Shown in pieces: positions 1-45,245 of a DNA stretch of 64,000 nucleotides; the stretch's first letter is position 1, and the number at the start of each line of letters is the position of its first letter. This stretch comes from an uncultured virus (IMG/VR IMGVR_UViG_2648501222_000009). Its lineage: Duplodnaviria; Heunggongvirae; Uroviricota; Caudoviricetes. The notes below the pieces were generated by a model. It was not told where the DNA came from, made no database searches, and saw nothing but the letters and a program-made list of their open reading frames with translations. The stretch lies in the IMG/VR virus record IMGVR_UViG_2648501222_000009; one strand, written 5' to 3'. The position numbers and the translations under genes are program-made.

Positions 1-228
1 ATGCACAATATCGCCAACCTGCCTCAAGACGAAAAAGACAAAATTAATGCCGATTTAGCCGCCTCCGGTATCGCGTACAAAGAAAGACTCGGACTGCCGT
101 ATGATCTGTACGAAACAGAAAACCAGCAGCCCGAGCATTTACGCCCGTACTTCAGAGAGAGACTGGAGCACTACAGGGAGATCGGGAAAAGATTTCCTCG
201 CGGGTTCGAGTATGAGAAGGAAGGTTAA
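1..228 (+). CDS. holE: DNA polymerase III theta subunit homologue (HolE/P1 Hot-like), prophage-associated
   Basis: 75 aa; [17 protein letters not shown] and [13 protein letters not shown] match HolE family motifs; convergent with tfa. Confidence 0.85.
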
Positions 229-644
229 GGCTTAACCGGCCAGTCGATATCCGGAGCGGTAGAGGTATCAACGCGGTTGAGCATCACCCGGTATTTTTTC
301 CACTCTTTCAGCAATGACTCTTCCTCATGTGTCGCCATATCCAGATCTACGGCATACTGAAGCGGAGCGATTGCTGCGTTGGCTTCAGCAATCAATGCTT
401 GTTTTCTGGCTTCCGCTTCTGCTATCAACTGCTCTCTGGTCACTGGCGGGTTGATATGCACCTCAACTTCTTTTTTGGTCATCTTGTGCATACCTTTAAT
501 TTTCTCATCAATCTCAAAGAAAATAGCAGAAACCTGCTCTTTTTCGTTGTCGAAATCAGACGCGTTTATTCTGGCAATAACTGCCATTTGCTCATCATCA
601 TAAGCGTGAACATCACCAGTCTCTTTATCTTTAAAATAATTCAT
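225..644 (-). CDS. Tail fibre assembly chaperone (Tfa)
   Basis: C-terminal [14 protein letters not shown]...[22 protein letters not shown]fa signature; ATG at 644 overlaps the fibre stop (ATGA). Confidence 0.9.
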
Positions 645-1673
645 TCCCGAACCTCCAACCATGTGACAACCCTTGCATTGCTCCCGCCAGACACATTAAT
701 CCTGTACCATGACTTATCCGGAATGGGGATGGATATAGTAGCCCTTGCACTGGAGCCGTAAGAATGTGTGGTTATTTCATTGCCATCAACGACAGCTGTC
801 AGCACAACAGAAACCCCGGCTGTGTCCTGGACTGCGGAAACCACGATGAATATGGTTCGACCAGAGGAGTTCGTGTATGCCGTATTCGGAGTACGCGAGC
901 TCAGGTAATTTTGATAAGTCTGCCCCTGGCCGAAGAACGGCAGCGTTGATAACCTGGACTCCCGAATCAGCTCATCCCAGGGGGATAACTCCCCGCCCTG
1001 TGACTTTCTGGTTGTAATAAAAATCCGGCGCTGATAGGCATCAAGCCCGATCAATGTCGGCCAAGCATCATCACCAATCTGCATAATTTTAAATGCTGAC
1101 TGAACCGGGGCATCTGACGGAAATGGAGACTGCGTTCTGATACCGACACCAAGGCCACCAAACAGTTGCTCTGTGATTTTTTTATTACCATCCAGTAATG
1201 CCGGTGGTGTTTTTACATAATCACCTTTGGGTTGATACTTTTCCGGTAAANNNNNNNNNNNNNNNNNNNNNNNNNNNNNNNNNNNNNNNNNNNNNNNNNN
1301 NNNNNNNNNNNNNNNNNNNNNNNNNNNNNNNNNNNNNNNNNNNNNNNNNNNNNNNNNNNCCAAGGTTTTCGATAAACATCGGTTTATTCGGAATGTCTTC
1401 GCCGTTCTTGTCTTTGGCGAGTTTGCTGTTTACTTCTGTTTTTGTGGCGTAGTTACCGCCGGAGATTATTTTTTTGATCGCGTCCTTCAGCTGGTTATCA
1501 TTATTTTTATCCTGCGCAATACCAGCCTCAACCAGCACACCAAGAATTTCCCGCTGGACGGAATTAAGCCAGCCAGCCTCAAGAATGGTCGGTGCAATAC
1601 CGGCGGCCACGTTGCCGTTTGTCCACTCGCCGTTTTTATCGGCGGTACTGGTGACATCACCAATTTTTTTCAT
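641..1673 (-). CDS. Tail fibre of outer prophage (constant N-terminus plus variable C-terminus joined at an invertase site; interrupted by 109 N)
   Basis: Removing the N gap gives one 307-aa ORF reading MFIENLG-LPEKYQ; follows the baseplate genes and precedes tfa. Confidence 0.8.
1241..1375. other. hix/gix-type invertase crossover site A (TTCCGGTAAACCAAGGTTTTCGATAA if the gap is closed)
   Basis: 10 bp left of the gap plus 16 bp right of it form a 26-bp site with central AA, matching the hix/gix/pix consensus. Confidence 0.85.
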
Positions 1674-1723
1674 AACAAAGCCTCACTCAGTGAAGGTGAT
1701 AATTAGTCGTTGATAGTCAGGGT

Positions 1724-2317
1724 TTACTGGCCGTAACCGACCTGAAGGATCGTGTGAGAGGGGGAAATCTGGTTAAACTGGCATTCGAGGTAATGCTCAC
1801 CCCACGAACGCAGCGGGTCACCGCAGTAACTGCCGCCGGCGACCGTGTATGTCACCTGTGTGTTTCCGGCATTGATACGCCAGACGAACGGCCATTCATC
1901 ACCGTTCAGTGCGTCACCACAGGCTGACAGCCCCGCCCTTGCCTGCCGGAATTCGGTAATGGTGACGGTGTATCCCATCTCAGCGGCCAGGCTGATGTAA
2001 TAGGGTTTTGACATCCCGCCGGTGCGCAGCAGTTTTGAAAGAACCGCGGATTGTCGTTTCGGGATGGTGTCCATCTCCCCAATCCCACAATCATCCGGCA
2101 GACCGAGCGTTTTTTCCCACTCCGGTAATAACGTTGTGGCCGTCTTCGGAAATGCCCCCTCAAGCAGCTGAACAGCGTCAATATCCGAGTCCTCATAACC
2201 GCGCGCCAGCGCCCGGAGAACAGCATGCATATTCGACCCCGGCCGCCAGTCCCACGCCATACCCTGCGGTGCCAGTCCGATCATGGCCTGAGTGTAATCG
2301 TCAGCGGTATAATTCAT
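1724..2317 (-). CDS. Baseplate protein, Mu gp48/YmfQ (DUF2313)-like
   Basis: LLPEWEKTLGLPDDC and LECQFNQISPSHT motifs; downstream of baseplate J. Confidence 0.85.
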   Translation of the reverse strand: MNYTADDYTQAMIGLAPQGMAWDWRPGSNMHAVLRALARGYEDSDIDAVQLLEGAFPKTATTLLPEWEKTLGLPDDCGIGEMDTIPKRQSAVLSKLLRTGGMSKPYYISLAAEMGYTVTITEFRQARAGLSACGDALNGDEWPFVWRINAGNTQVTYTVAGGSYCGDPLRSWGEHYLECQFNQISPSHTILQVGYGQ

Positions 2318-3453
2318 GTGTATGACACCTCCCCGCGCTGCGCCAGTTCACCGGTGCTCAGAACAATATTCTCAGACGGTTTTTTCAGGACAAAGCCGGT
2401 AGTACCGGGAATATCAGCAATCGCATACTGCAGATCGGAAAGGTAGATTTTTGCGCCGCCGGTCGGGTCGCTGTCCCGGAAAAACACATCATCAATGGAT
2501 TTGGCTATCTGCTGATGTAATTCCGAAGTCGCCCTGCTCAGCCCTTCAATTTCAAAATCTATCTTTTTCGCGATAGGTGAACAAACCCACACCAGCGCCG
2601 TAACCGTCTGTACATCCCAGATATGGTCTGCAACACGCAGCTGGTCGCCGGTCGCATGCACTGAATAAGTTTCTTTGGTGGCCGGTCCGTCAGTTCCCAG
2701 CGGAAAACCGCCGTTGCTGTTTCCGTCACACATGATGTAAATACCAACCGACCCGGCACCCAGCAGGCGGCGTTTTACCCAGGCGCGGGAAATGCCCGGC
2801 ACTTCTTTCGCCCAGCCTTCATAGTCTGTGTCGCTGCCGCCCTGCGGTGGTTCCTGGTACGCATGCAGGACACGCAGACGGAAAGCCTCTTCGTTCTCAA
2901 TATCACTGCCGCCGGTGATCGGGTCAACAGCGACGCATTCCGAAAATACTCCGGATATCGCTATCTCAAGCGTCAGTTTTGTCCCGGCCGGTGAGTTACC
3001 CGCCGCGCCGCCGCCGTAAATATTATCGTCAATGCCGGGCAGAATGGCTTCAACAGATGTGAAGCCTTTTCCGTCAGAATTAATATGGGCCTCAGTAACA
3101 GACTGGTACCGGTATCCATCCCCCCGGGCCATCGCTGTACCAGCCGGAATGATGCTGTCCGGCACACCGTCAAACTGCACCTTTGTACCGATGGCCTTGT
3201 TCGGTGGTTTGCGGTACACCCGCTTCAGCGCGCCCCAACCCGCCAGATATTCATCCGTTGCGGTAAACGGAGTTGCCTGTTTTGCAATGTAATCCAGATA
3301 GGCATAATGCAGGTGCGCCATACCGGCATCCATATCCGCCAGTACCCGCATATTGGAATACCGCAGCAGCGCACCGGGCTCTTTCAGTTCATTGCGCAGG
3401 AAATTCTGGTTCTGCTCCCGCAGCTCCGTCAGTGTTTTACGCTTAAACGGCAT
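2314..3453 (-). CDS. Baseplate J / Mu gp47-like wedge protein
   Basis: GGSDIENEEAFRLR..PPQGGSDTDYEGWAKEVPGISRAW motif. Confidence 0.9.
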   Translation of the reverse strand: MPFKRKTLTELREQNQNFLRNELKEPGALLRYSNMRVLADMDAGMAHLHYAYLDYIAKQATPFTATDEYLAGWGALKRVYRKPPNKAIGTKVQFDGVPDSIIPAGTAMARGDGYRYQSVTEAHINSDGKGFTSVEAILPGIDDNIYGGGAAGNSPAGTKLTLEIAISGVFSECVAVDPITGGSDIENEEAFRLRVLHAYQEPPQGGSDTDYEGWAKEVPGISRAWVKRRLLGAGSVGIYIMCDGNSNGGFPLGTDGPATKETYSVHATGDQLRVADHIWDVQTVTALVWVCSPIAKKIDFEIEGLSRATSELHQQIAKSIDDVFFRDSDPTGGAKIYLSDLQYAIADIPGTTGFVLKKPSENIVLSTGELAQRGEVSYT

Positions 3454-3891
3454 TTATTGTTTCTCCCATACCCAGTAAAAACGCAGATCTTCCGCACCGG
3501 CGTCCGGCCGGTGATAGCGGATAACCATGTTCAGCCGCTGTGGCCACACTATTTGTGTCCGGATCTGAATATCAGATACGACCCCGTCAGTTATCAGCCA
3601 GGCCTGCGCCTCCCGGGCGTAATCTTCTGCTTTCTTTGCCACCTGCGTTGTCAGTTTCTGACGCCTCAGCAGCCAGAGACGGGAACCGATAAACCCATCA
3701 GTTCCGGTATCGGCCCACCATCCCCGCCGGTACTCATCGTCGTAATCATCGTCACTGTGCGCCAGACGGTCCGTGAACAGACTGATCATAATCGCTGACT
3801 GCAAATCATCACCAGAAAGCAGGTCACCGTTTCCGGCTATCCAGTCGGCGCGCAGCGTGTCCGCGTTCCACCAGGAAGAAATATCAGACAT
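3454..3891 (-). CDS. Mu gp46-like baseplate protein
   Basis: ISLFTDR, RGWWAD and GSRLWLLRRQK motifs. Confidence 0.9.
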   Translation of the reverse strand: MSDISSWWNADTLRADWIAGNGDLLSGDDLQSAIMISLFTDRLAHSDDDYDDEYRRGWWADTGTDGFIGSRLWLLRRQKLTTQVAKKAEDYAREAQAWLITDGVVSDIQIRTQIVWPQRLNMVIRYHRPDAGAEDLRFYWVWEKQ

Positions 3892-4481
3892 CAGACTTTC
3901 TCCTTAATCGGGTTGCTGGTTCGGGTGGCACTGCCCGGTTCGACATTTTTCACATCATGGTTGTGATTGTTGTAGCTGTCCCGCAGCGTTTTCAGTGTGG
4001 ATTTATTGCTACCGTAGTTATCAATCACATCACCGGACACTTTCAGGATCGGCGTATTCAGCACCACTTCTGTTTTGGCGTTGACCGTCACCTTATCGGC
4101 GTTATTGATGGTCACATCTTTATCTTTGGCCTCAATCACAATGCCGTCCTCTGTCATGTGGATGTACATACCCCACAGGTTGTACATCACGCTTTCACCC
4201 GGTGAGAGGCCGGTATGCCGGGAACCGGGGTGATTACTGCCGATAACTACGGCACTGGAACGGTTACCGCCTAGATAGGCAATCAGAACATCCGACCCCG
4301 GCGGCAGAGAGGAAGAAAAGCCAAATTCCGTCATACGGTAAGTGCCGTCACGGACCTCCAGTGCGGTGCTGTACTGGATGGTCTGTATCGCTCCGTCATC
4401 TTTGGTGATACTGGATTTACCGGCACCAATCATCATCGACATCCGGGTTTTTAAATCGCGGACCTGATCACTCATCGTCAC
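3891..4481 (-). CDS. Baseplate spike, Mu gp45-like
   Basis: FGFSS..P motif, C-terminal HNH metal-binding tip; synteny. Confidence 0.85.
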   Translation of the reverse strand: MTMSDQVRDLKTRMSMMIGAGKSSITKDDGAIQTIQYSTALEVRDGTYRMTEFGFSSSLPPGSDVLIAYLGGNRSSAVVIGSNHPGSRHTGLSPGESVMYNLWGMYIHMTEDGIVIEAKDKDVTINNADKVTVNAKTEVVLNTPILKVSGDVIDNYGSNKSTLKTLRDSYNNHNHDVKNVEPGSATRTSNPIKEKV

Positions 4482-5548
4482 ACCCTTATTACCTGGTAAA
4501 ATTCATACGGTTCAGCAATGAATGCTTCCGGCGGCATCAGCTGTAATGTCGCACGTGTCCCGCCGGCATCCCGCAGATAGGTCACATCCGACAGCGTCCA
4601 GAATTTATCCGTCACCCCAAGAACCGGAATATCTATCGGGATCAGCGTGTTCGGCTCCCACAGTTTCCCGGAGGCATCCCGCCAGCTGTCCACCATCACA
4701 CTCAGGATTTTTGAGCGTCCGTAACGGCGGTTCATTTCCCAGTCGATACTCTCCTGCTCCCGTTTAGCGGTGATCAGGGTGCTTTCGATGATGGTGATAT
4801 AATTCCGGTACCGCATTTTTCCCGCTTCCGGATCCCGCGCCGAGGCGTTCTGTACCGCTGACACATCTCCGGCAAACGGGGTAACAGACAATGACACGCC
4901 GGTATAATCGGAATAGCGCTCTGCCATAGAATCCGAGAAATCAGCACTTTCGATATTTTTTCCCTGCTCCACGCCGCTGGCCGCCACCTTGTCACTGACG
5001 CGGGTCAGCAGCAGGTTTCCATCCGGCTGTTCGTAATACAGCAGCGCAGAGTACCGGCAGCAGCGCTCGATCACCTGCTGTGAGGATTCCCCCCAGTTCA
5101 GGGTAAATTGCGGGACAATCTGTAACCCGCCATCGGAAACTGTGCTCGACACCTCAATGCCGTACCACTTCGCCAGTTTCTGTGCGATTTGCAGGGCGTT
5201 GGACTGGCTGATCACGTTGTTCGGCCAGTTGGCGGAGCAGTCCACCAGATCCTGACATTTGCCCCTGCCGGATACGCTTATCTGATGCTGGTTTTTGTTT
5301 ATCTGACCATTCCAGGTGTCGATATAACCGGTGATAACCCGATCCTGACCGAGAAACACCTCACAGGGGTCGCCCGGTTTAAATAGTTGCTTCTCATCCG
5401 TTGCCGGGTAGTAATCCATCAGGCTGATTTCAAAATCGTTCGGCAGTCGTTCAATCCCGCGGGTAACCCGGACACTGTCCCAGCCGGAAATGCGCTTGCC
5501 GTTTATCACCAGTGATAATTCTTCGGTTTTTTTCGTCTCTTCCGTCAT
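4478..5548 (-). CDS. Baseplate hub, Mu gp44 (gpP)-like
   Basis: GWDSVRVTRGIE, SGRGKCQDLVDCS and LWEPN motifs. Confidence 0.9.
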   Translation of the reverse strand: MTEETKKTEELSLVINGKRISGWDSVRVTRGIERLPNDFEISLMDYYPATDEKQLFKPGDPCEVFLGQDRVITGYIDTWNGQINKNQHQISVSGRGKCQDLVDCSANWPNNVISQSNALQIAQKLAKWYGIEVSSTVSDGGLQIVPQFTLNWGESSQQVIERCCRYSALLYYEQPDGNLLLTRVSDKVAASGVEQGKNIESADFSDSMAERYSDYTGVSLSVTPFAGDVSAVQNASARDPEAGKMRYRNYITIIESTLITAKREQESIDWEMNRRYGRSKILSVMVDSWRDASGKLWEPNTLIPIDIPVLGVTDKFWTLSDVTYLRDAGGTRATLQLMPPEAFIAEPYEFYQVIRV

Positions 5549-6944
5549 TTTTTCAGTGCCTTAAATCTCACCGGTATAAACGCCGGATGCCGGGGCTGAA
5601 TCTCCATCACCAGCTCTTCGCTGCGGGTTGCATCCTGATACAGGCGGTTAGCCACATTGAGAGACGGCAGCACCGACGGCAGAGCGTAAGACGACAGGCG
5701 GCCTCGTTCGGAGCCTTTATCGCTGAAAAAAATAACAACCTGCTCGCGCCGGTTCAGGAGGGTAAGGTGAATATCATCCAGCGCCAAATCCCCGGTGATA
5801 GTCATAGCATCATCGAGGGATTCACAGACTTCCCGCTGATATCCGGCTGACTCAGTGCTGTTTGTCGGGTCAGACTGACCGGCCACCACGGAAAGTGCCG
5901 ATGCGGCCAGTACAACCAGCATCATTTCAGTCAGTGCGGCGATTCTTTTATCCTGCTCCGTCTGCTGATATTCCGGATTGCGGAACCGGGATAATGTATT
6001 CAGGATCTGCATCTTCTGGCCGGTGTCACCGTCCATTGTTATCAGGATGACAAACACCTGCTGTATCTGTGCGATCACATCTTCCGGGGCTACTGCATCA
6101 CTGACCGCGCTGAGTGTTTCATCCAGCTGTTGCCGGTCAATAATGGCCTGGTTCAGCGTTTTATCGATAATTTCACGGTCATCAGTATCACCCTGATGTA
6201 TGCGCTTGCCGGTCGCACCGGACACCGCCCCGCCCGCGCTGCCTTTCTGATAGCGACCGTATTTATTGCTGCCTAACACACTGTTCAGCGAGTTACTGAG
6301 ATTAGTGACCTCATCAACTGAACTGCTGACCATATTTACCCAAAAATCCGCAGTCTGTTTCAGCGTCTTCATCATCTGCGTGACAGACCTGACCTCACCT
6401 TTAATCATGGCGATCGTCTTCAGGGTGGTATGCGCTGCTTCTTTCAGCCACTGCCCGAATGTCAGTTCACCAGTTTTTTCACTGCCGGTGATGGCAAACA
6501 CTTTCAGGCCGGACTCGATAACCACCAGTTCAAACTCAAACACCCGGCCGCTTTCTGCGTTTTCTGACACCCGCAGGCCGCTCTCAGTCACGCTGACGGT
6601 CATTTCTCCGAGTGTCGGGTGAACCAGCGTTCCGGCCTCACCAACTTCACAGGCGGCCACCAGATTGTCGCGCTGGGTAATAACATCCGGCGCGTCATAA
6701 ACGAGACTGTCCTGAATCAGAAATCCCTTTATGGTGATCCGCCGGTTACTGCGCCCCATGTCCTCTATCCAGGACTGATCGCGGTACGCATATTCATGAA
6801 TGGCCTGGCGACGACCGAAACACTTTCACCGCTAATCACGCCGAACGGCACACCACGGAATGAAGCCTGCTGCAGGTGTTCAGACCAATTCCAGTCCGGA
6901 TCAATACCGAGCAGATCAGATATGGCGTCTTTGATAATTGGCAT
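5545..6944 (-). pseudogene. Mu gpN-like DNA circularisation protein, frameshifted near 6819
   Basis: N-terminal QASFRGVPF continues as FGRRQAIHEYAYRD..WIEDMGR only if one T is added to the GTTTC run. Confidence 0.8.
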
Positions 6945-6960
6945 GTGGGCTCCGGGAATA

Positions 6961-6986
6961 AAAAAAGCCACCGGAGTGGTGGCTTT
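6961..6986 (-). terminator. Intrinsic terminator after the 7020-7520 gene
   Basis: AAAGCCACC-ACTCC-GGTGGCTTT hairpin followed by a T run on the minus strand. Confidence 0.75.
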
Positions 6987-7019
6987 ACTATTTAGTAAGT
7001 AGATAAATTAAAATTATTT

Positions 7020-7520
7020 TTATAATTTAATATCGCAGGCTTTTACGAATTTATTTACTTCTGCAGTAGACCGTGCAATATTTCCTGGGTGCGATATCTT
7101 GTAGTCATCTTCTGGAGTTGCTCCTTTGATATTGACACCTATCAGATACTTTCCGTTAGCAGACTTGAGTTCTTTTAACGCCTTAACTATCTGCCCCTCA
7201 TCATAAGATATCGCTTCTACAGCCTTATTATTTTTAACTCCGAACGTTGCATCAAACTTAATCACGCTATTGCCATCCACTTTAAACAAGAGATCAGCAG
7301 GCCTATCTTTAACATCAGCATCTTTGATAAATTCAACATATGAGAATGACAAATCATCCCCAGAACATCTGAATAAGGAAACTGCGTTTGAGACATTTAA
7401 TTGTCCTATCAATAAAGCATCCCTTTCACCAAAGATATTATCCTGAGCATTAGATTCCCACGCCGCGCTGGCTGAACAGGACATAAATAAAACCATAAAA
7501 CATAACAACAGCTTTTTCAT
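7020..7520 (-). CDS. Exported hypothetical protein (moron)
   Basis: AT-rich; signal peptide MKKLLLCFMVLFMSCSASAA; inserted in the tail operon with its own terminator. Confidence 0.75.
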   Translation of the reverse strand: MKKLLLCFMVLFMSCSASAAWESNAQDNIFGERDALLIGQLNVSNAVSLFRCSGDDLSFSYVEFIKDADVKDRPADLLFKVDGNSVIKFDATFGVKNNKAVEAISYDEGQIVKALKELKSANGKYLIGVNIKGATPEDDYKISHPGNIARSTAEVNKFVKACDIKL

Positions 7521-7552
7521 TGATCGGCTCCATTATTAATATTTTTTATATA

Positions 7553-9442
7553 CTACGGCATATTCATCGCTGTTGTAACCCTTCCTTTTGGCTTCACGTT
7601 TACGGTACTTTTTGTTCCGGTTTCCGCGTTAGTCAGGACAATTTCCAATGTGCCACCCGCTTTGTTTTCCTGAAGAACTTGTGATAATTGCTCGGTGAAG
7701 GCCAGTAGTGCCAGGGTCGGGTCTTTGTCTATTTTAAAGTCAGTCGCTGCTGATGCAGTCTCTTGTTGTTGAGTCTGCTGCATGGCTATCATGTCACGCT
7801 GTTCTCTGACCCTATCGGGGTTACGAAGCCCTTTCCAGCGGTCATCCATAATTGAATCCATTATGCCATCCATTACCTCCTGGTAGCTGTAAGGCTGCTC
7901 GATGTTTTCGACCTTAATCATATGAGGAATGACCTTAGCCAGTACATTAGGATCATGCATATTAAGCGGCTCATGCGGACCAAACCCAGTGCCTTTTGAT
8001 ACCCGATCTATGTATCCCTGAGTGTTATTTTTTGCCTTAGCTGGTGCGTACTTCTGCAGGAGTCCGTCGAAAGTATTCAGCCCATCTTCGGCATCAAGCA
8101 TTAGCTGGCGTGACATTGCTGCTATCCCGTCTCTGGATGACCCGAATTTGACGTACCGATGGTCGTTACCGTAATCATACCCCGTGCTGTTTGGTGCAGC
8201 GATCAGGTTGCCAGGGTTGTTATTTCTCAATCCGCGCCGGTTTGGATTATATTGCTCATCCTGCACCCAGTTATCAGGCACCTTACTATTCAGCGTTGGT
8301 TTGCTTTTACCGGCTTCGGCCTGCGCTTTTTGTTTTTCCCATTGCTCGTTATAGCGCTTATAAATCTCGCTGTACATCTCATCAGTCGGGTCTTTTGCAA
8401 TCAGGCGAAGTTTTTCGAACCCGCTCAGGGTATCTTTATAATCATCATCTTTCAGAGCACGCTGAATAAGGTCTTCGCGTTTATCACCGTGGTAGAAATT
8501 ATCCGGGGTGTCATTAATACGCTTCTGGTGCTCTTCAATATTCTTCATGGCGCCAGGTAGATCACCAAAATCAGGAACCATGCTGGGTGAATCAATAAAT
8601 TCATAAAGCGATTTCTGAATCTGATTCATTTTCCCGGACAATTTTGCGCTGGCTTCATTTAACTGAGTGTCCACCTCAGTCATTTTTTGAGCGAACTCCC
8701 CCTTCATAGTCAGGCCAAATCTGTCCGAGTTATCCAGCCGCTCCTGTACTTTTTTTTCCCGTATCAATGCAATCATATCGGGTGTCAGTTTCAGGTTGTC
8801 ACGCAATTCCCAGTTGCGACTCTCCGGTAGTTTTTCGACCGCCTTTTCAATACTGAGGAGTGTTTTTGTCAGATCAACGCTACCATCCTTCCGCTGAACT
8901 ATTTCTGCCCCAAGATGGCGTATTGAAGCCAGCAACTGATCATCCTTACCAATTACCGCCTGGCTGAGTTTCTCGTAGTACCCTTCCATCTGGCTGCGGG
9001 AATCATCTTTGCTGACCCCTCTCTGTTGCAATGTACCGCTAAGCCGGGTACTTTCCTCTACTGTCATACCGGTATTGGCGGCTGATGTGGTGATATTTTT
9101 ACCTTCCTCAGCCATCCCCGTAATCAGCTTGCCACCACCGGCGATAATTGCACCGATACCACCAATACCAGTCAGTTTCCCGGCCAGTGCACCAAAGTTT
9201 TTCAGCGGCGGGATCATGTCCCCGATACTCTGAACGCCGGATTTCGCCTCCTCGGATACATCACGGAGTAAATCACCGATACCACGCAGCCCGGTTACTG
9301 ATTCATCGCCACCGAGTTTCAGTTTATCCCGTGCCTCATCCAGTGCCGGATTCAGACTACGGATTTTTTCTTCAAGAACCGTAATCTGACCGCTTGCGCG
9401 GTCATCCGCATTCAGTTCAAAATCAAAGGCATTACCCGCCAT
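7553..9442 (-). CDS. Tape measure protein with C-terminal lysozyme-like domain
   Basis: Follows the tail chaperone; helical N-terminus; RGLRNNNPGNL...KYAP..NNT.GY motif. Confidence 0.8.
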   Translation of the reverse strand: MAGNAFDFELNADDRASGQITVLEEKIRSLNPALDEARDKLKLGGDESVTGLRGIGDLLRDVSEEAKSGVQSIGDMIPPLKNFGALAGKLTGIGGIGAIIAGGGKLITGMAEEGKNITTSAANTGMTVEESTRLSGTLQQRGVSKDDSRSQMEGYYEKLSQAVIGKDDQLLASIRHLGAEIVQRKDGSVDLTKTLLSIEKAVEKLPESRNWELRDNLKLTPDMIALIREKKVQERLDNSDRFGLTMKGEFAQKMTEVDTQLNEASAKLSGKMNQIQKSLYEFIDSPSMVPDFGDLPGAMKNIEEHQKRINDTPDNFYHGDKREDLIQRALKDDDYKDTLSGFEKLRLIAKDPTDEMYSEIYKRYNEQWEKQKAQAEAGKSKPTLNSKVPDNWVQDEQYNPNRRGLRNNNPGNLIAAPNSTGYDYGNDHRYVKFGSSRDGIAAMSRQLMLDAEDGLNTFDGLLQKYAPAKAKNNTQGYIDRVSKGTGFGPHEPLNMHDPNVLAKVIPHMIKVENIEQPYSYQEVMDGIMDSIMDDRWKGLRNPDRVREQRDMIAMQQTQQQETASAATDFKIDKDPTLALLAFTEQLSQVLQENKAGGTLEIVLTNAETGTKSTVNVKPKGRVTTAMNMP

Positions 9443-9444
9443 AA

Positions 9445-9600
9445 TTAATCTCCGCTTTTAATCTCTTCGGCCTGCTCAACCCACCAGTGCAGACGGCTTT
9501 TTGACAGGAGCCACGCATCACGCGGCCCCCACCGGTAAAACCAGGTCACCTTTGCCGCCAGCCGCTGCCATGACCGGAGAGCATTTATGCCAAAAAAGGG
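9445..9600 (-). CDS. Frameshifted C-terminal extension of tail chaperone (gpE'/gpT-like)
   Basis: -1 frame after C CCT TTT TTG reads FFGINALRSWQRLAAKVTWFYRWGPRDAWLLSKSRLHWWVEQAEEIKSGD. Confidence 0.75.
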   Translation of the reverse strand, partial: PFFGINALRSWQRLAAKVTWFYRWGPRDAWLLSKSRLHWWVEQAEEIKSGD

Positions 9601-9848
9601 GTCAGAAAATCACGGCACTGTTTGAAATCTGTGATCGCCATTTTTTTCAGTTCTGTTTCCGGGATTTCACTGACCAGGGAAATCAGCCGCCGCATACCGG
9701 GAAGTGAGTTGCTGGCCTTATTCTGCACATCGTAAAACTGCTCTACTTCAATAAGGCATGGTTCACGCAGGTTAACTTCCTCATAACGGACTTTGCCGTC
9801 ATTGGATTCCAGCGGTTTACTCAGCGTGATAGTTTTTGTTGTTTCCAC
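9585..9848 (-). CDS. Tail assembly chaperone (Mu gp41/GpE-like)
   Basis: ITLSKPL and LREP motifs; lies between tube and tape measure. Confidence 0.85.
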   Translation of the reverse strand: METTKTITLSKPLESNDGKVRYEEVNLREPCLIEVEQFYDVQNKASNSLPGMRRLISLVSEIPETELKKMAITDFKQCRDFLTPFLA

Positions 9849-9850
9849 AA

Positions 9851-10219
9851 TTAGTTCTCCGTTACCGAACGACCTTCAAAACGCACGTCAAACACGGCGT
9901 CTTCGCTGTTTACTTCCTGGGTCTGAACAACCCATAGCCCCTGACCGATGATGGTTTTGCCGTTCGCCAGTTCGGCCACCACGTTCACATTGGTCATGCC
10001 GTTAAAATCCGCCACGGTAGTGCCGCCGGAATCACGGACACGCATCGCGATAAACCCGGCGACCGGCTTTTCTTTGTAACCGTGGACAAAGTCCATACCG
10101 GTCAGGGTTTCGCGGGTGACCGTGGACGGACTGTATTTAAAGTCCGCCGCCACCATAATTGACATGCCGTTGACGGAGACGTGAGCCGTTCCCGCCAGAC
10201 GATTGGATGTATCGCCCAT
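9851..10219 (-). CDS. Tail tube protein (Mu gpM-like)
   Basis: 122 aa after the sheath; RETLTG..VHGYKEKP and ELANGK motifs. Confidence 0.9.
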   Translation of the reverse strand: MGDTSNRLAGTAHVSVNGMSIMVAADFKYSPSTVTRETLTGMDFVHGYKEKPVAGFIAMRVRDSGGTTVADFNGMTNVNVVAELANGKTIIGQGLWVVQTQEVNSEDAVFDVRFEGRSVTEN

Positions 10220-10228
10220 GATTTCTCC

Positions 10229-10988
10229 TTAGTTGCCCGGCATCAGGCGGAACTGGTTAAGCAGCGCAAACACGCGCAGCTGGTTAATGAGGGTGCCGGT
10301 CCACAGGACATCAACACGGTTCGGGTTCTGGCTGTTGCGCTCGACTTTCAGGCCTTTGGCAAACCCTTTCGCGTCCTGCACATGACCGTTAAATTCCAGG
10401 AAGCCATACTGGGCGATCAGTTCTGCTTTAATGATATTCGGCGTGACGATTGCAGCCCCCGGCGCAAAACGGGTGCCGTCTTCTGCCAGCTTCATACGCC
10501 CGAATTTACTGGTCACCTGGGTACGCAGATAGCGTGATACAAACATCAGCAGATACAGGGTTTCCACCTGCAGATAACTGTCGTCATTGTCGCCGTAGGC
10601 ATTTTTCTGGTAGGTCGTGATGATATTCTCAACCCGCACGGTACCGTCATCGTCCACGGTAAATGTGGAAATGCCGCTGTGCAGCAGATTGTTACGCTCG
10701 GTCAGTTCAAGAATCTTCGTGTCGTCCGGCGGCAGCACACCACTGATAACCAGCGTCTGTAACGGGCGGCCCGGGTCATTACGCAGGCTCTGGGCAATGG
10801 CACCGGTATATGCCGCACTCCACTGATAATCCGGTGAGGGTGAACCGTTGACCCCGAGCAGTGAGGCATGCTGGTCGTTACGCTTTTCACCAAGATCAGC
10901 CAACTGACCATAAGTGCCGGTGATCACCCCGTAGCTGTGTCCGTATAACTGTTTGTCCCACGCCCAGCGGTCTGCCAGAAAGGTTTTC
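10229..10988 (-). pseudogene. Outer prophage tail sheath (Mu gpL-like), 3' fragment
   Basis: Reads KTFLADRWAWDKQLYGH... and joins in frame with 45240-45967 to give 493 aa. Confidence 0.93.
10983..10988. repeat. Target site duplication GTTTTC, left copy
   Basis: Identical to 45240-45245; directly precedes the TG terminus. Confidence 0.92.
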
Positions 10989-11031
10989 TGATGCGCCGCG
11001 CGATAAATAAGCCCGTATCCGTGAGATAAAT
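10989..11031 (+). repeat. Left end with two putative transposase-binding sites
   Basis: TGAT, GATAAAT at nt 14-20 and GTGAGATAA at nt 33-41, mirrored at the right end. Confidence 0.85.
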
Positions 11032-11081
11032 GGTACCGCTGCGGCGTTTCAATATATGCAAAAGAATTACAATCTTACATA

Positions 11082-11648
11082 TCACTCCGGCCTTTGAACA
11101 CCAGCCGGAAAGTACCGATAGAGTGTCGATAATCCCACACCGTAAATAATGGCCAACTGATGGCGTGTATATCCTTTAACTAATAATCGTCCAATCTGCT
11201 CTCTCTCATGGGGCTTTAGTGCATTTGGCCTTCCACCTATACGTCCCTGTACTCTCGCAGCGGCCAGTCCGGCCAATGTCCGTTCCACTATCAACTCGCG
11301 CTCCATTTCTGCCAGTGCTGACATGACATGAAAGAAAAAACGGCCCATAGCAGTGCTGGTATCGATACTGTCCGTCAGTGATCGGAAGTGTGCGCCCCGT
11401 TCGTGCAAATCAGATATCAGGGTTATGAGGTTTTTGACACTGCGCCCGAGTCTGTCCAGCTTCCACACAACAAGAGTATCGCCACTATTAATGCACTTTA
11501 AAGCACGTTTAAGGCCCGGACGGCTGGCCACTTTTCCGCTCATGCGGTCTTCAAAAATGCGGTCACAATTTGCGCTTGTGAGTGCATTACGCTGCAAATC
11601 ACTGTTTTGGTCAATTGTTGATACGCGGATATAGCCGATAACAGCCAT
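11082..11648 (-). CDS. hin: Serine DNA invertase, Hin/Gin/Pin family, very Hin-like
   Basis: GYIRVSTIDQN catalytic Ser motif, LVVWKLDRLGRS, GGRP and STLYRYFPA HTH. Confidence 0.93.
   Translation of the reverse strand: MAVIGYIRVSTIDQNSDLQRNALTSANCDRIFEDRMSGKVASRPGLKRALKCINSGDTLVVWKLDRLGRSVKNLITLISDLHERGAHFRSLTDSIDTSTAMGRFFFHVMSALAEMERELIVERTLAGLAAARVQGRIGGRPNALKPHEREQIGRLLVKGYTRHQLAIIYGVGLSTLYRYFPAGVQRPE
11561..11623. promoter_or_regulatory. Fis-binding recombinational enhancer inside the invertase gene
   Basis: GGTCACAATTTGCGC (11561) and GGTCAATTGTTGATA (11609) are 48 bp apart, as in the hin enhancer. Confidence 0.8.
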
Positions 11649-11711
11649 TGGTTCCTCCTCATTTTTACTGTAATGAGTGGATTATTACGAATTTACACGG
11701 CTGTGGCTGCA

Positions 11712-11727
11712 TTCCTAGAAACCTTGG
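11712..11727. other. hix/gix-type site B (partial, runs into the gap), inverted relative to A and C
   Basis: TTCCTAGAAACCTTGG with central TT at 11724-11725. Confidence 0.85.
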
Positions 11728-12586
11728 NNNNNNNNNNNNNNNNNNNNNNNNNNNNNNNNNNNNNNNNNNNNNNNNNNNNNNNNNNNNNNNNNNNNNNNNN
11801 NNNNNNNNNNNNNNNNNNNNNNNNNNNNNNNNNNNNNNNNNNNNNNNNNNNNNNNNNNNNNNNNNNNNNNNNNNNNNNNNNNNNNNNNNNNNNNNNNNNN
11901 NNNNNNNNNNNNNNNNNNNNNNNNNNNNNNNNNNNNNNNNNNNNNNNNNNNNNNNNNNNNNNNNNNNNNNNNNNNNNNNNNNNNNNNNNNNNNNNNNNNN
12001 NNNNNNNNNNNNNNNNNNNNNNNNNNNNNNNNNNNNNNNNNNNNNNNNNNNNNNNNNNNNNNNNNNNNNNNNNNNNNNNNNNNNNNNNNNNNNNNNNNNN
12101 NNNNNNNNNNNNNNNNNNNNNNNNNNNNNNNNNNNNNNNNNNNNNNNNNNNNNNNNNNNNNNNNNNNNNNNNNNNNNNNNNNNNNNNNNNNNNNNNNNNN
12201 NNNNNNNNNNNNNNNNNNNNNNNNNNNNNNNNNNNNNNNNNNNNNNNNNNNNNNNNNNNNNNNNNNNNNNNNNNNNNNNNNNNNNNNNNNNNNNNNNNNN
12301 NNNNNNNNNNNNNNNNNNNNNNNNNNNNNNNNNNNNNNNNNNNNNNNNNNNNNNNNNNNNNNNNNNNNNNNNNNNNNNNNNNNNNNNNNNNNNNNNNNNN
12401 NNNNNNNNNNNNNNNNNNNNNNNNNNNNNNNNNNNNNNNNNNNNNNNNNNNNNNNNNNNNNNNNNNNNNNNNNNNNNNNNNNNNNNNNNNNNNNNNNNNN
12501 NNNNNNNNNNNNNNNNNNNNNNNNNNNNNNNNNNNNNNNNNNNNNNNNNNNNNNNNNNNNNNNNNNNNNNNNNNNNNNNNNNNNNN

Positions 12587-12610
12587 CTCTCAAACCAAGG
12601 TATTCGAGAA
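12587..12610. other. hix/gix-type site C inside the inner tail fibre gene
   Basis: CTCTCAAACCAAGGTATTCGAGAA with central AA at 12597-12598; encodes LEYLGLR. Confidence 0.88.
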
Positions 12611-13208
12611 GAGCTGCGACAGATTTTCCTGACAAGGCAGTCAGCGTATTATCCAGCGGCTGCTTACCGGCCAGAGCATTCGTCATTGTGGTGGCAAAAT
12701 TTGGATCGTTACCCAAAGCCGCCGCCAGTTCATTCAGTGTATCAAGCGCCTCGGGAGACGATGCAACCAGTGCAGCAAGTGCCGATTTCACAAATGCCGT
12801 TGTGGCAATCTGCGTATTATTAACGGTCTGCGGGGCAGTCGGAGCGGTAGGTGTGCCGGTTAATGCGGGACTGGCCAGAGGTGCGTAGTCAGCAACAACC
12901 GTTTTGACGTGTGCAGTATTGGCCAGTTTGGTGCTGTTATCCGTTTTGACCACCGTCGGTGCCGCCGGATTTCCGGTAAACGTCGGGCTGGCTTTCGGCG
13001 CATACTGGGTATGCGGGTCAGCAGCCTTAATGTGTTCCGAAAGGTCTGAACTGCCTTTTTCAACCTGTTGTTTCAGGTATGAAGTACGGCTGGCCAGTTG
13101 TTTAGCCTGACGGTTAGAAATCCCGTCAGGCCCGCCCAGGACGGGGTCAGAGACCTCAATCTGGTAGATGCCGTCTTCCCACTGCGGGGTTTCGGGTAGG
13201 TTTGCCAT
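12587..13208 (-). CDS. Inner phage tail fibre, constant N-terminal part (variable part lies in the N gap)
   Basis: P2 gpH-like repeats DPHTQYAPKASPTFTG, SPALTGTPTAPT and LDTLNELAAALGNDPNFATT. Confidence 0.9.
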
Positions 13209-13210
13209 AA

Positions 13211-13789
13211 TTAACTGCTCCCGTGGTTATAGCTGCCGTCATAGTTGACGGTATTGTTGTAGCGGATAGCGACAGACTGATACTCCAGGCTCGCCAGATG
13301 GCAGCGGGCCGGTGCAAAAGCAGAGAGGGTTTTGCGTAACAGCGCCGCCTGATCGTTAGTAATGGGCTGCTGAAGGATGACGCGGTAAACCGCCCATGAT
13401 TCCGCATCTCCGTGGACGAAAAGACCGTTGTAACGGTGTTTTCCGTCGTAGCTGATCTGGCCGGTGCCTTCAATCAGATCCACCTCACCGAAGCCGAAAC
13501 GGCGGATAATTTCCCGGATTGACCACGGCGTCCCTTTGTAGCGGTGCAGCTCGATGGCGGATTTGATAAGCATGCGGCGTACATCGTCAGATTCCGCCAG
13601 CTCCCAGCCATCGCCGAACAGCGAGAACTGCTCACCCAGCCACGGCAGTGCGGAGCTGTCGACAATATCAACCAGGCAGACCATCAGTACGCTCAGGTCG
13701 ATGTTATCCAGCCGCCCGGCCAGTCTTCCCAGCGTTCTGAGGCTGACATCACCCTCAAGCGGCGGCGGGAGTTGCAGCCGTTCAGCCAT
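13211..13789 (-). CDS. P2 gpI-like tail protein
   Basis: LPWLGEQFS and IELHRYKGTPWSI motifs. Confidence 0.88.
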   Translation of the reverse strand: MAERLQLPPPLEGDVSLRTLGRLAGRLDNIDLSVLMVCLVDIVDSSALPWLGEQFSLFGDGWELAESDDVRRMLIKSAIELHRYKGTPWSIREIIRRFGFGEVDLIEGTGQISYDGKHRYNGLFVHGDAESWAVYRVILQQPITNDQAALLRKTLSAFAPARCHLASLEYQSVAIRYNNTVNYDGSYNHGSS

Positions 13790-34728: not shown

Positions 34729-35493
34729 ATGAAACAGCAATTTTTACCCATCGTCCCCTGGATTGGCGGAAAACGTCGGCTGGCCAAACATATTCTGCCG
34801 TTGTTTCCTGCTCATACCTGCTACGTGGAACCATTCTGCGGCGCAGCGGCACTTTACTTCCTTAAGAACCCCTGCAAGGTTGAGGTCATCAATGATATCA
34901 ATGGCGAATTAGTCAACCTCTACCGGGTGGTAAAGCATCATCTGGAAGAGTTCGTCCGTCAGTTCAAATGGGCACTGGTCAGCCGCCAGATTTATAAGTG
35001 GCTGCAGGATACCCCGGAAGAAACACTCACTGACATTCAGCGGGTGGCAAGGTTCTACTATCTGCAGAAGCAGGCGTTTGGCGGTAAGGTGGCAGAACAT
35101 ACATTCGGAATATCCACCACCAGTGCACCGCGTTTTAACCTGTTGCGTATTGAAGAGGAACTGTCGATGGCGCACCTGCGCCTGTCCAGAACACTGATAG
35201 AGCATCTGAACTGGCACCAGTGTATTGAGCGTTATGATCGCCAGCATACGCTGTTCTACTGCGACCCGCCGTACTGGGGAACGGAAGGTTATGGTGTGGA
35301 CTTTCCGATAGGTAACTATATCCACATGGCGGAACTGGCCAGGAGTATCAAAGGGAAAATGATTATATCAGTGAACGATATCCCTGAAATGCGGCGGGCT
35401 TTCAACGGACTGAATATCCGCAGCGTCAATATCAACTACAGCCTGGCAGGCAAACCTTCGCCACGGCAGGAACTTGTGATCTGTAATTTTTAA
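34729..35493 (+). CDS. DNA adenine methyltransferase (Dam/D12 class)
   Basis: PWIGGKRRL, VEPFCGAA SAM-binding, VINDIN and catalytic DPPY. Confidence 0.93.
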   Translation: MKQQFLPIVPWIGGKRRLAKHILPLFPAHTCYVEPFCGAAALYFLKNPCKVEVINDINGELVNLYRVVKHHLEEFVRQFKWALVSRQIYKWLQDTPEETLTDIQRVARFYYLQKQAFGGKVAEHTFGISTTSAPRFNLLRIEEELSMAHLRLSRTLIEHLNWHQCIERYDRQHTLFYCDPPYWGTEGYGVDFPIGNYIHMAELARSIKGKMIISVNDIPEMRRAFNGLNIRSVNINYSLAGKPSPRQELVICNF

Positions 35494-36849: not shown

Positions 36850-37562
36850 GAAAAGTGAATATTTCCAGCTCAGGCTCCCGCATTTTGCGTGTTCTTAAAG
36901 CGCTTCGCGGTCANNNNNNNNNNNNNNNNNNNNNNNNNNNNNNNNNNNNNNNNNNNNNNNNNNNNNNNNNNNNNNNNNNNNNNNNNNNNNNNNNNNNNNN
37001 NNNNNNNNNNNNNNNNNNNNNNNNNNNNNNNNNNNNNNNNNNNNNNNNNNNNNNNNNNNNNNNNNNNNNNNNNNNNNNNNNNNNNNNNNNNNNNNNNNNN
37101 NNNNNNNNNNNNNNNNNNNNNNNNNNNNNNNNNNNNNNNNNNNNNNNNNNNNNNNNNNNNNNNNNNNNNNNNNNNNNNNNNNNNNNNNNNNNNNNNNNNN
37201 NNNNNNNNNNNNNNNNNNNNNNNNNNNNNNNNNNNNNNNNNNNNNNNNNNNNNNNNNNNNNNNNNNNNNNNNTTTCCAGCTCAGGCTCCCGCATTTTGCG
37301 TGTTCTTAAAGCGCTTCGCGGTCACACACTTAATGGAATCTCAAATGGTGAGCTGGCATTAGCACTTGAAGATTCTCCGGCCAATATCAACCGTGCGTTA
37401 AATACACTGATCGAAGAAGGGCTAGCAATGAAGCTGGATAACGCTCGTTTTGCACCGGGCATCCAGCTTTTGCAGATCGCTGTTGCGTATAGCAACGAGA
37501 TGAGCCGGGCACAGGATCGCATAAACGAAATTAACCAACGGGTATTAGCTGGTAGTCGATAA
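36846..37562 (+). CDS. Small IclR-like winged-HTH protein (about 101 aa once the gap overlap is merged)
   Basis: RILRVLKAL..SNGELA..SPANINRALNTL; 52 bp repeated on both sides of the gap merge in frame. Confidence 0.75.
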   Translation: MRKVNISSSGSRILRVLKALRGXXXXXXXXXXXXXXXXXXXXXXXXXXXXXXXXXXXXXXXXXXXXXXXXXXXXXXXXXXXXXXXXXXXXXXXXXXXXXXXXXXXXXXXXXXXXXXXXXXXXXXXXXXXXXXXXXXXXXXXXXSSSGSRILRVLKALRGHTLNGISNGELALALEDSPANINRALNTLIEEGLAMKLDNARFAPGIQLLQIAVAYSNEMSRAQDRINEINQRVLAGSR

Positions 37563-38483: not shown

Positions 38484-40253
38484 ATGAGTGCTGCCCTGAC
38501 TGAACGACTGGTTTCTGTTGCCCGCGCGGCACGTGACGCGGGGCATGGTAAACGTGGTGCAATATACGACGCCGCCTGCACAGAACTGGGTATATCCCGT
38601 GCCACACTGCTGCGCAAGCTGAAGGAGGTATCAGTGACTGACAAACGCAAAAAACGCGCTGATGCAGGACGCAGCTCACTGAGCCGCGATGAAGCTGCGC
38701 TGATATCCGCCACACTGCGCGAAGCTACCCGTAAAAATGGCAAGCGCCTGTATTCCATCGCGGATGCGGTGGAAACTCTGAGGTCAAACGGCTTTATAAC
38801 TGCAGGCAGAACGGACGAGGCCACAGGCGAGTTTTTCCCGCTGTCCGATGACACCATCAGCCGCGCACTGCGTAACTATGGCCTGCACCCGGAACAGCTT
38901 GATGCACCGGCCCCATCTTCCGAGGTGGCAAGTCTGCACCCTAATCACGTCTGGGAGATTGATGCGTCGCTTTGTACGCTTTACTACCTGAGTAACGGTC
39001 ACAAGGGGCTGCAGGTGATGGACAGCGCGAAGTTCTACAAGAATAAGCCTGCCAACCTTGCACGCATCGCCAGTGACCGGGTATGGAGCTATGAGATAAC
39101 CGATCATACCAGCGGCTGGATTTATGTTGAGTACGTGATGGGGGCGGAATCCGGTGAAAACCTCTGTTCTGTGCTTATCAATGCGATGCAGGAACGCGGC
39201 GGTGCAGATGTGCTGCACGGCGTACCTAAGATACTCTACCTTGACCCCGGTTCGGCGAACACCGCCGGCATGACGAAAAACATGTGCCGCTCGCTGGGTA
39301 TCGATCTGATAGCGCACAAGCCGCATAACGCCCGCGCTACCGGTCAGGTTGAAAAAGCCCGTGACATTATCGAACGCAAGCTGGAACCGGGTCTGAAGTT
39401 CCGTCCGGTTAACAGCCTGGAAGAGCTGAACTCACTGGCTGTGAAATGGCGCAGTCACTTTAATGCCACAGCAATCCACAGCCGTCACGGTAAAACCCGC
39501 ACCGATATCTGGCTGAAAATCACGGCTGAACAGTTGCAGAAAGCGCCATCTACAGAGGTCTGCCGTGAACTGGCGGTGGCGGCACCGGAACTCCGCAAAG
39601 TCACACCAAAACTGCGTGTATCGTTCCGTGGCACAGAGTTTGATGTGTCGGCGGTACCGGGCGTTTTGGTCGGCGAAAAACTGATGATTACCCGTAACCC
39701 ATGGCGCAGCGATGTGGCACAGGTGGTACTGACCGGCGGGGACGGTCACGAGACATTCTTTCTGGTCGAAGAGGTCAGAAAGAACGAGTTTGGCTTTGCC
39801 GAAAGCGCGGCGGTGTTTGGCAAAAGCTATAAACCCCTGCCGGAGACCACGGCACAGACTGCTGCAAAAGAAATTGAAGAGCTGGTCACCGGTACGGATA
39901 ACGCTGCTGATGCAGCGGCAGCCCGTAAGGCAAAAACGCTGCCGTTCGGCGGACGACTGGATCCATACAAACATATCGACGACACCACGCTTCCCGCCTA
40001 TATGCCTAAACGCGGTCAGGTTTCAGATGTGCGCGGCCCGCGTATTGAGCTACGCCCGCTGACCCATGTGGAGGCTGCGAAAATTCTGCGTGAAAAGTTC
40101 AGCCTGAACGGCCATACCTGGACGCCGGAACATTATCGCCGGTTAACGGCGGATTACCCGGATGGTGTGCCGGAAGCCACACTGGATGAAGTGATGGTCG
40201 CCCTGACCACCCCGGCCCGCAACAGCGTTATCAGCATTGTTAACGGCAACTGA
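38484..40253 (+). CDS. DDE transposase (MuA analogue, B3-type)
   Basis: HPNHVWEIDAS, PKILYLDPGS and ARATGQVE catalytic triad. Confidence 0.93.
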   Translation: MSAALTERLVSVARAARDAGHGKRGAIYDAACTELGISRATLLRKLKEVSVTDKRKKRADAGRSSLSRDEAALISATLREATRKNGKRLYSIADAVETLRSNGFITAGRTDEATGEFFPLSDDTISRALRNYGLHPEQLDAPAPSSEVASLHPNHVWEIDASLCTLYYLSNGHKGLQVMDSAKFYKNKPANLARIASDRVWSYEITDHTSGWIYVEYVMGAESGENLCSVLINAMQERGGADVLHGVPKILYLDPGSANTAGMTKNMCRSLGIDLIAHKPHNARATGQVEKARDIIERKLEPGLKFRPVNSLEELNSLAVKWRSHFNATAIHSRHGKTRTDIWLKITAEQLQKAPSTEVCRELAVAAPELRKVTPKLRVSFRGTEFDVSAVPGVLVGEKLMITRNPWRSDVAQVVLTGGDGHETFFLVEEVRKNEFGFAESAAVFGKSYKPLPETTAQTAAKEIEELVTGTDNAADAAAARKAKTLPFGGRLDPYKHIDDTTLPAYMPKRGQVSDVRGPRIELRPLTHVEAAKILREKFSLNGHTWTPEHYRRLTADYPDGVPEATLDEVMVALTTPARNSVISIVNGN

Positions 40254-45196: not shown

Positions 45197-45239
45197 AATT
45201 ATCTCACTTATCCCCTGTCATTTATCTCAAGTCTAATCA
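45197..45239 (-). repeat. Right end with two putative transposase-binding sites
   Basis: Reverse strand TGATTAGACTTGAGATAAATG...GTGAGATAA at the same offsets as the left end. Confidence 0.85.
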
Positions 45240-45245
45240 GTTTTC
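45240..45245. repeat. Target site duplication GTTTTC, right copy
   Basis: Follows the CA terminus; identical to 10983-10988. Confidence 0.92.

Follow-up and report, generated by a model that had tools for sequence, protein, structure and literature searches.

Can two prophages, one inserted into the other, share a single tail-fiber switch? This question is raised by a stretch of DNA of 64,000 nucleotides, here called the window, from an uncultured virus of the Caudoviricetes (IMG/VR record IMGVR_UViG_2648501222_000009), in which PHROG and Pfam scans of the open reading frames recognize two phages, one within the other. A preliminary description of the window had proposed that three compatible crossover sites, A in the outer phage and B and C in the inner phage, form a cross-phage shufflon together with one invertase, that nesting thereby creates a shared pool of host-range modules, and that inversion may switch the transposition competence of the inner phage. 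The reading that we consider probable, with considerable reservation, is that two ordinary systems were juxtaposed by one transposition and that A is an orphan site which takes part in no functional shufflon. The elements of the proposed switch are the following.

Positions 641-1673, minus strand: tail-fiber gene of the outer phage, with a constant N-terminal part (1362-1673, PHROG tail-fiber matches), site A and a C-terminal cassette (641-1249).
Positions 1241-1250 and 1360-1375: site A, an orphan 26-bp crossover site of the Gin/Pin type, TTCCGGTAAACC AA GGTTTTCGATAA, split by a run of 109 N (1251-1359).
Positions 11082-11648, minus strand: Gin-family serine DNA invertase (Pfam Resolvase, 4.3e-46; HTH_7, 1.5e-13).
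Positions 11560-11622, minus strand: putative Fis-dependent enhancer, two Fis-like motifs 48 bp apart in the 5' coding region of the invertase gene.
Positions 11712-11727: site B, comprising the invertase-proximal half-site, the core TT (11724-25) and two more bases, TTCCTAGAAACCTTGG, with the remainder within an N run.
Positions 11728-12586: run of 859 N in place of the unassembled invertible fiber segment of the inner phage.
Positions 12587-12610: site C, comprising the last 10 bases of the inner half-site, the core AA (12597-98) and the fiber-proximal half-site, CTCTCAAACCAAGGTATTCGAGAA.
Positions 12588-13208, minus strand: constant N-terminal part of the inner tail fiber (PHROG tail-fiber matches), ending in ...LLEYLGLR.

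All three sites are real, as had been proposed, and A is present with its complete 26 bp. It reads TTCCGGTAAA (1241-1250), then the N run, then CCAAGGTTTTCGATAA (1360-1375), with the core AA at 1362-1363. The N run contains no real bases. In the public sequencing run X1 one contig of 22,881 nucleotides matches 1-1250 and 1360-10988 at adjacent contig positions with zero letters between them, in the related locus L007 positions 7958 and 7959 align to 1360 and 1250 of the window with nothing between, and the complete chromosome G111, found by a query with the first 1250 bases of the window, has an unbroken 26-mer that is identical to A at 26 of 26 positions. The zero-base join is in frame (...FIENL-G-LPEKY), which 109 real bases would disrupt; the earlier suggestion that this gap falls inside the site and closes in frame therefore holds. 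The 12-base core pattern taken alone is no more common than chance (6 matches against 6.27 expected), and it is because the full 26-mer is identical to the working site of a relative that A is accepted as a real site. The proposed orientations were confirmed as well: A and C have the same core orientation (AA) and are direct repeats, B has the opposite one (TT), and A and B are inverted, with matching cores that are separated by 10,362 bases. The reading register is also the same in A (ENLGL) and in C (EYLGL).

The switch of the inner phage is, by comparison with its relatives, a standard two-site Gin-type system. Its invertase combines an N-terminal catalytic domain with a C-terminal helix-turn-helix, as in other small serine recombinases, is identical to Gin of phage Mu at 126 of 180 residues (70%), and matches the Gin chains in the PDB with E 1e-78. 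The serine in ...YIRVSTIDQ aligns with the catalytic serine of Gin, which is Ala in the row of the mutant 3uj3. No other invertase was found in the window by tblastn (match at 11085-11648 on the minus strand, all others E>1), and the statement that the only invertase lies between A and B thus stands. The two Fis-like motifs, defined by a degenerate consensus, are 109 and 157 bp from the core of B, compared to 97 and 145 bp in Mu and 108 and 156 bp in outer-type genes. The region aligns with the 5' region of Mu gin and may function as an enhancer. Site B is homologous to the invertase-proximal sites of L007 and G111. B and C are inverted, with inner halves that are partly hidden by N; complete site pairs are present in Klebsiella phage KP12, which has the same layout with the sites 1.68 kilobases (kb) apart, and in 19 inner-type loci that were gathered via the invertase. 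In relatives of the inner phage the segment measures 1.5-2.2 kb. A separate assembly, G001, contains the same inner phage at 99-100% identity. At C the window reads GGTTTGAGAG, and G001 reads GGTTTAGGAGAA followed by a different cassette, which is the expected signature of the alternative orientation, indirect as it is when two assemblies are compared.

How did a site of one phage come to lie in cis to the invertase of another? The answer is given by the borders of the inner phage and by the gene in which it resides.

Positions 10989-45239, minus strand: inner BcepMu-like transposable prophage, recognized by TG...CA ends, target duplications and transposase identity.
Positions 45233-45967, minus strand: N-terminal half of the outer-phage sheath gene (profile positions 1-243 of 493).
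Positions 10229-10927, minus strand: C-terminal half of the same gene (PHROG profile positions 267-493 of 493).
Positions 1724-10927, minus strand: tail module of the outer phage (baseplate, tape measure, tube and C-terminal half of the sheath; PHROGs).
Positions 38484-40253: DDE transposase of the inner phage (PHROG transposase).

The termini of the inner phage are TG from 10989 and CA up to 45239, flanked by GTTTTC target duplications at 10983-10988 and 45240-45245. Four public runs (X1, X2, X4 and X7) were used as Logan contigs, not raw reads, and aligned to positions 1-13300. All four depart from the window at 10988 with an identical 30-letter continuation, and this continuation is located at position 45246. 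Together with the ends and the repeats, this identifies the inner phage as a clean transposition insert. It is absent from all four strains, which have an uninterrupted sheath gene; that these runs leave 11101-13300 uncovered is uninformative on the window's own strain. The best-matching sequencing run, which has 0.95 of the sampled words in common with the window, does not contain the insertion. The nesting of two prophages, as first described, is therefore well founded in the split sheath halves, the empty site in 4/4 runs and the target duplication. None of the other records and runs that were searched has the nested arrangement, and exact-pattern scans for the outer/inner junction and for the inner-phage end were empty, which argues for a one-off insertion instead of a selected architecture. 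A baseplate protein of the outer phage is 97% identical to that encoded on a Morganella morganii contig and 90% identical to that of M. psychrotolerans, which places the host in Morganella.

The outer phage belongs to a lineage that has its own switch, and the comparison with relatives explains why A is considered an orphan. Two genes adjoin the cassette at the left edge of the window.

Positions 1-228, plus strand: phage-borne homologue of DNA polymerase III theta (Pfam DNA_pol3_theta).
Positions 225-662, minus strand: tail-fiber assembly protein of the outer cassette (phrog_188; Pfam Caudo_TAP, 1.3e-33).

With the N run taken out, the outer fiber gene encodes about 307 amino acids. L007 and L008, the two Morganella loci of seven that were retrieved by a query with the baseplate protein and not with the invertase, each contain a pair of inverted sites with about 2.0 kb between them, one of them in the fiber gene, with two facing assembly-protein genes between the sites and an invertase of 184 amino acids of their own. 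The fiber-gene site of L007, TTATCAAAAACCTTGGTTTACCGGAA, agrees with A at 25 of 26 positions. In G111 the order is theta, invertase, site, a segment of about 2 kb, and the fiber-gene site identical to A. In the window theta directly adjoins the assembly-protein gene, and the outer phage's own invertase, partner site and second cassette are absent, which leaves A without a partner of its own phage. A second invertase to the left of the window is unlikely, as the invertase in G111 is situated between theta and the cassettes, precisely where the window has theta abutting the assembly-protein gene. X1 has the same locked arrangement as the window. In X2, X4 and X7 the site is followed on its left by other cassettes (window 243-1360), and the contigs of X2 and X4 stop 161 and 73 nucleotides past it, with a half-site ...TCCTAAACC that resembles the inner-phage cassette half in G001; this would fit complete, flipping switches in these strains. 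The loose-end sequences of X2 and X4 occur in none of the collected loci within 3 mismatches. No match to positions 1-3000 was found in the Escherichia coli genome collection, and the phage collection gave merely weak partial matches to the outer fiber region. A theta homologue beside a fiber switch was also seen in L033 (8283-8510) and L034 (11993-12213), and G111 has two theta copies, 94-95% identical, at distant chromosomal places.

In view of the above, the following course of events can be considered. A BcepMu-like phage would have transposed into a resident Morganella prophage, within its tail-sheath gene, bringing along an ordinary switch (invertase with its putative 5' enhancer, B, invertible segment and C) that alternates two fiber tips. 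The outer phage would descend from a lineage with a switch of its own, of which this copy retained neither the invertase nor the partner site nor the second cassette, so that its fiber gene became locked. The orphan A, in cis and inverted to B with a matching core, would then be a candidate substrate for the inner invertase, and an A × B inversion of 10.36 kb could occur as a side reaction and not as a designed shufflon. Inversion by Gin and Hin depends on inverted sites in cis with identical cores, on an enhancer in cis and on supercoiling, and enzymes of this family recognize each other's sites. The inverted sites with identical cores and the enhancer in cis, the latter putative, are present in the window, and, as judged from the sequence, its single recombinase has three compatible sites in cis, namely A, B and C. 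The inner invertase and the invertase of G111 are 86% identical, helix-turn-helix included; because A is identical to the native site of the latter, recognition of A by the inner invertase would be plausible. An A × B event is thus mechanistically plausible. The geometry is as first proposed: 10.36 kb would be inverted, most of it the tail module at 1724-10927, and the N-terminus of the outer fiber would be joined to the inner cassette at the B side. That the inner invertase indeed recombines A with B, giving a three-site network over two nested prophages, with a reversible 10.36-kb flip that provides the outer fiber with a new tip and detaches and re-attaches one end of the inner phage, is a tentative proposal that we rather doubt.

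Several observations weigh against regarding A as a mere leftover, and they also bear on a second explanation, namely that the inner invertase recombines A and B often enough to make the culture heterogeneous, in a reversible manner that is neutral to the host and without an adaptive role. The contig break falls exactly inside A, a target of 26 bp in 64 kb, and the flanks abut perfectly. Both ends of the contig 1360-11727, the one at A and the one at B, are cut in the same register and form a 9-nucleotide terminal inverted repeat, CCAAGGTTT. There is no break at A in X1, L007 and G111, where the outer phage occurs without the inner phage and the sequence is contiguous through A. No repeat was found that would explain the break: among 80 related IMG/VR loci, the outer cassette (225-1250) has only weak matches in 3, at the assembly-protein gene. 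Exact-pattern scans with the A-right, B-left and A-left flanks gave no matches. Real A × B heterogeneity in the culture would yield such a break, which may be taken as a hint. In a published study, e14-type segments were found at about 50:50 in single-colony cultures (PMC4272514). By analogy with e14, a neutral A × B flip could be frequent. Furthermore, theta is the last gene before the left edge of the window, and a distant partner site for A may lie beyond this edge. Frequent collateral inversion would also agree with the identity of A to the native site of an 86%-identical enzyme, with the inverted arrangement, matching cores and putative cis enhancer, and with two published findings, the fast equilibration of e14 inversion and one P2-like prophage in which three repeats give four variants (PMC4272514). 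It is opposed by several points: the assembly is broken at a non-site too, a simple k-mer graph model predicts an overlap of 12 nucleotides between the contig ends where 0 is observed, and the 39 natural site pairs that we collected are all 1.5-2.6 kb apart, with none near 10 kb. Taken together, collateral inversion at such a frequency is possible but doubtful, and we continue to prefer the juxtaposition of two ordinary systems with an orphan A.

The non-site break calls for an examination of the gaps themselves. Besides the runs at 1251-1359 (109 N) and 11728-12586 (859 N), the window has one further N run.

Positions 36914-37272: third N run, 359 N, spurious and not at an invertase site, with flanks that are an exact duplicate of 52 nucleotides.

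The flanking sequences 36862-36913 and 37273-37324 are identical, and G001 is contiguous here with a single copy. The third gap is, judged from this duplicate, a failed overlap join, and its position away from any site means that the assembly breaks for other reasons too. Of the earlier claim that all sites coincide with assembly gaps, it can be retained that two of the three gaps touch sites; one of these runs spans both B and C, and the third lies at a non-site. The run lengths were also considered as true distances, and this was rejected. The real or expected values are 0 at A, -52 at the third gap and about 1.5-2.6 kb between B and C, the last being derived from related loci, 39 of 84 of which have a clean site pair, with a span of 1506-2621 nucleotides. 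The three lengths differ by exact multiples of 250 (250 and 500), which suggests a mechanical rule of the scaffolder or the data preparation rather than a measurement. In this light the break at A could be purely an effect of assembly, with A inert, caused either by a further related prophage that diverges at the site or by the behavior of the scaffolder. The spurious third gap and the multiples of 250 agree with this, as does the occurrence of several related fiber loci per genome, exemplified by three outer-type prophage records (L073, L097 and L099) from one IMG genome. What argues against it is that the 12-26 bp common to different sites are too short to mislead most assemblers, that contigs I and II lack the internal break expected at the renewed divergence of a second copy, and that the flanks abut perfectly, with no collapsed repeat between the contigs. 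A break of purely technical origin at an inert site is improbable in our estimation. In our preferred reading the orphan A may be used in a side reaction, and the question becomes whether its use would serve any function.

For an adaptive shufflon, in which nesting provides a shared pool of fiber tips and a reversible competence switch for the transposable phage, the geometry and the reading frames are permissive, in that they allow the outer N-terminal part to be fused to inner cassettes. A functional shufflon is nevertheless unlikely on structural grounds. The outer sheath gene is split by the 34-kb insertion, and Mu-type phages are not known to excise precisely, so that a re-tipped outer fiber has no working tail and no virion could use the hybrid. 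A and C are direct repeats, which places the outer cassette beyond the reach of the inner phage by inversion and makes it accessible only via a lethal 11-kb deletion. Alternative C-termini would thus serve no functional gene, the outer sheath being split and the inner fiber being cut off from the outer cassette as far as inversion is concerned. The proposed host-range pool consequently does not work as such, as it runs one way, into a dead phage. The transposition switch fails for another reason: the end of the inner phage that would be flipped is the fiber/invertase end and not the transposase end. An A × B inversion would move this fiber-side end and the invertase gene 10 kb away in reversed orientation, and would leave the prophage in two parts until a further flip restores the segment. 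The absence of the nested arrangement from all runs and collections searched also speaks against selection for such a device. We regard an adaptive cross-phage shufflon as very improbable, and the A × B flip is probably not a device that matters.

There is one part of the shared-pool idea that appears to hold, on an evolutionary scale, and it also counts in favor of an adaptive shufflon. In G001 (L001 2206-2342) the 137 bases after site C are 98.5% identical to two outer-type loci, L071 on the fiber side and L074 on the invertase side. Both mismatches are inside the half-site, the following 129 bases are identical, and the constant sides are unrelated. This points to at least one cassette that is common to both lineages and was exchanged exactly at the crossover site, and it would indicate a recent exchange; the same cassette, as judged from these matches, is joined at the site in both lineages. 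Of the invertible segments, 15 outer-type against 19 inner-type gave 0 matches at E<=1e-20, and at E<=1e-3 they are just 65-77% similar, at the assembly-protein gene, with the G001 cassette as the one clear exception. The 39 clean site pairs among the 84 loci are all two-site systems with TT/AA cores. L097 and L099 have a 2307-nucleotide segment in common with swapped inner half-sites (GGGAGAA/TTCTCTC in one and GAGAGAA/TTCTCCC in the other), and represent either a single switch in both orientations or a genome with two prophages that are nearly identical.

The remaining gene content agrees with the assignment of the two phages. The inner phage has a repressor, a divergent early operon with the DDE transposase and a transposition ATPase, lysis and head genes, and tail genes of the P2 type. 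It has the features by which BcepMu-like phages are recognized, that is, the DDE transposase and the transposition protein, the TG..CA ends, a short target duplication, and early genes whose transcription is directed away from the late ones. With the transposase of Klebsiella phage KP12 its own shares 94% identity, and it is 68% identical to BcepMu gp09 and phiE255 gp40, both of which are on the opposite strand in their records. A DNA methyltransferase gene (34729-35493, plus strand) lies between the lysis genes and the repressor, on the strand opposite to them. To the left of the third N run the identity with G001 falls from 99% to 94% and then to 71%, and the immunity region differs. In the outer phage the early, lysis and head genes, at 46-63 kb, are lambdoid, and the contractile tail is of the Mu/SfV type.

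As it stands, the locus consists of known parts: a Gin-type switch, a relic site and a nested prophage. In a limited literature search no description was found of recombination between sites of two different prophages. If A × B recombination is true, the inner invertase would be the first of the Gin type to recombine sites from two different prophages, and the flip would constitute a reversible on/off state for a Mu-type prophage. Orphan sites in locked fiber genes would then not be inert, as they could be re-activated by an incoming phage with a related invertase, and inversions spanning a prophage border could cripple or restore a transposable prophage. Its occurrence would also bear on the movement of cassettes between unrelated phages, a route that the shared cassette fits, and on the breaks of draft assemblies at crossover sites.

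Among known systems, the inner switch is closest to the G segment and Gin of Mu, and to the C segment and Cin of P1 and the P segment and Pin of e14. It resembles Mu in the 70% identity of the invertase, in the 26-bp sites with 12-bp half-sites and a 2-bp core, in the position of one inner site within the fiber gene in the same register, in the location of the invertase gene by the other site with a 5' Fis-type enhancer (putative here), and in the switching of fiber C-termini plus the assembly protein. It is unlike Mu in that it is carried by a BcepMu-like phage with tail genes of the P2 type, the segment measures 1.5-2.2 kb in relatives instead of 3 kb, the core is TT/AA, and a third compatible site is located 10.36 kb away in another prophage. 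Sandmeier, cited in PMC4134206, is said to have described in 1994 the horizontal exchange of fiber modules at crossover sites. The cassette shared by G001 with L071 and L074 follows the same pattern, being attached, exactly at the site, to constant parts that differ; the pattern is evolutionary, is not a running switch and does not need nesting.

Systems with more than two sites form a second group. Sandmeier's work, cited in PMC4134206, reportedly also includes the six-site Min system of plasmid p15B. Like it and like the three-repeat inversion system of a P2-like prophage in enteropathogenic Escherichia coli E2348/69 (PMC4272514), the window combines one Gin-family invertase with more than two sites and several fiber C-termini. 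In those systems all sites are in one element and one fiber gene, whereas here the third site is in a different, inactivated phage and its recombination is postulated. Finally, action between prophages has published precedents: PinQ of the Qin prophage inverts the P segment of e14 in trans (PMC12529663), and Phi4 of strain EC958, with a truncated invertase, is served in trans by the invertase of another prophage (PMC4134206). The resemblance is that the invertase of one prophage would use the crossover sites of another. In PinQ/e14 and EC958 Phi4 both sites are in the same foreign prophage; in the window one site would come from each phage, so that the border of the two prophages would lie within the inverted block.

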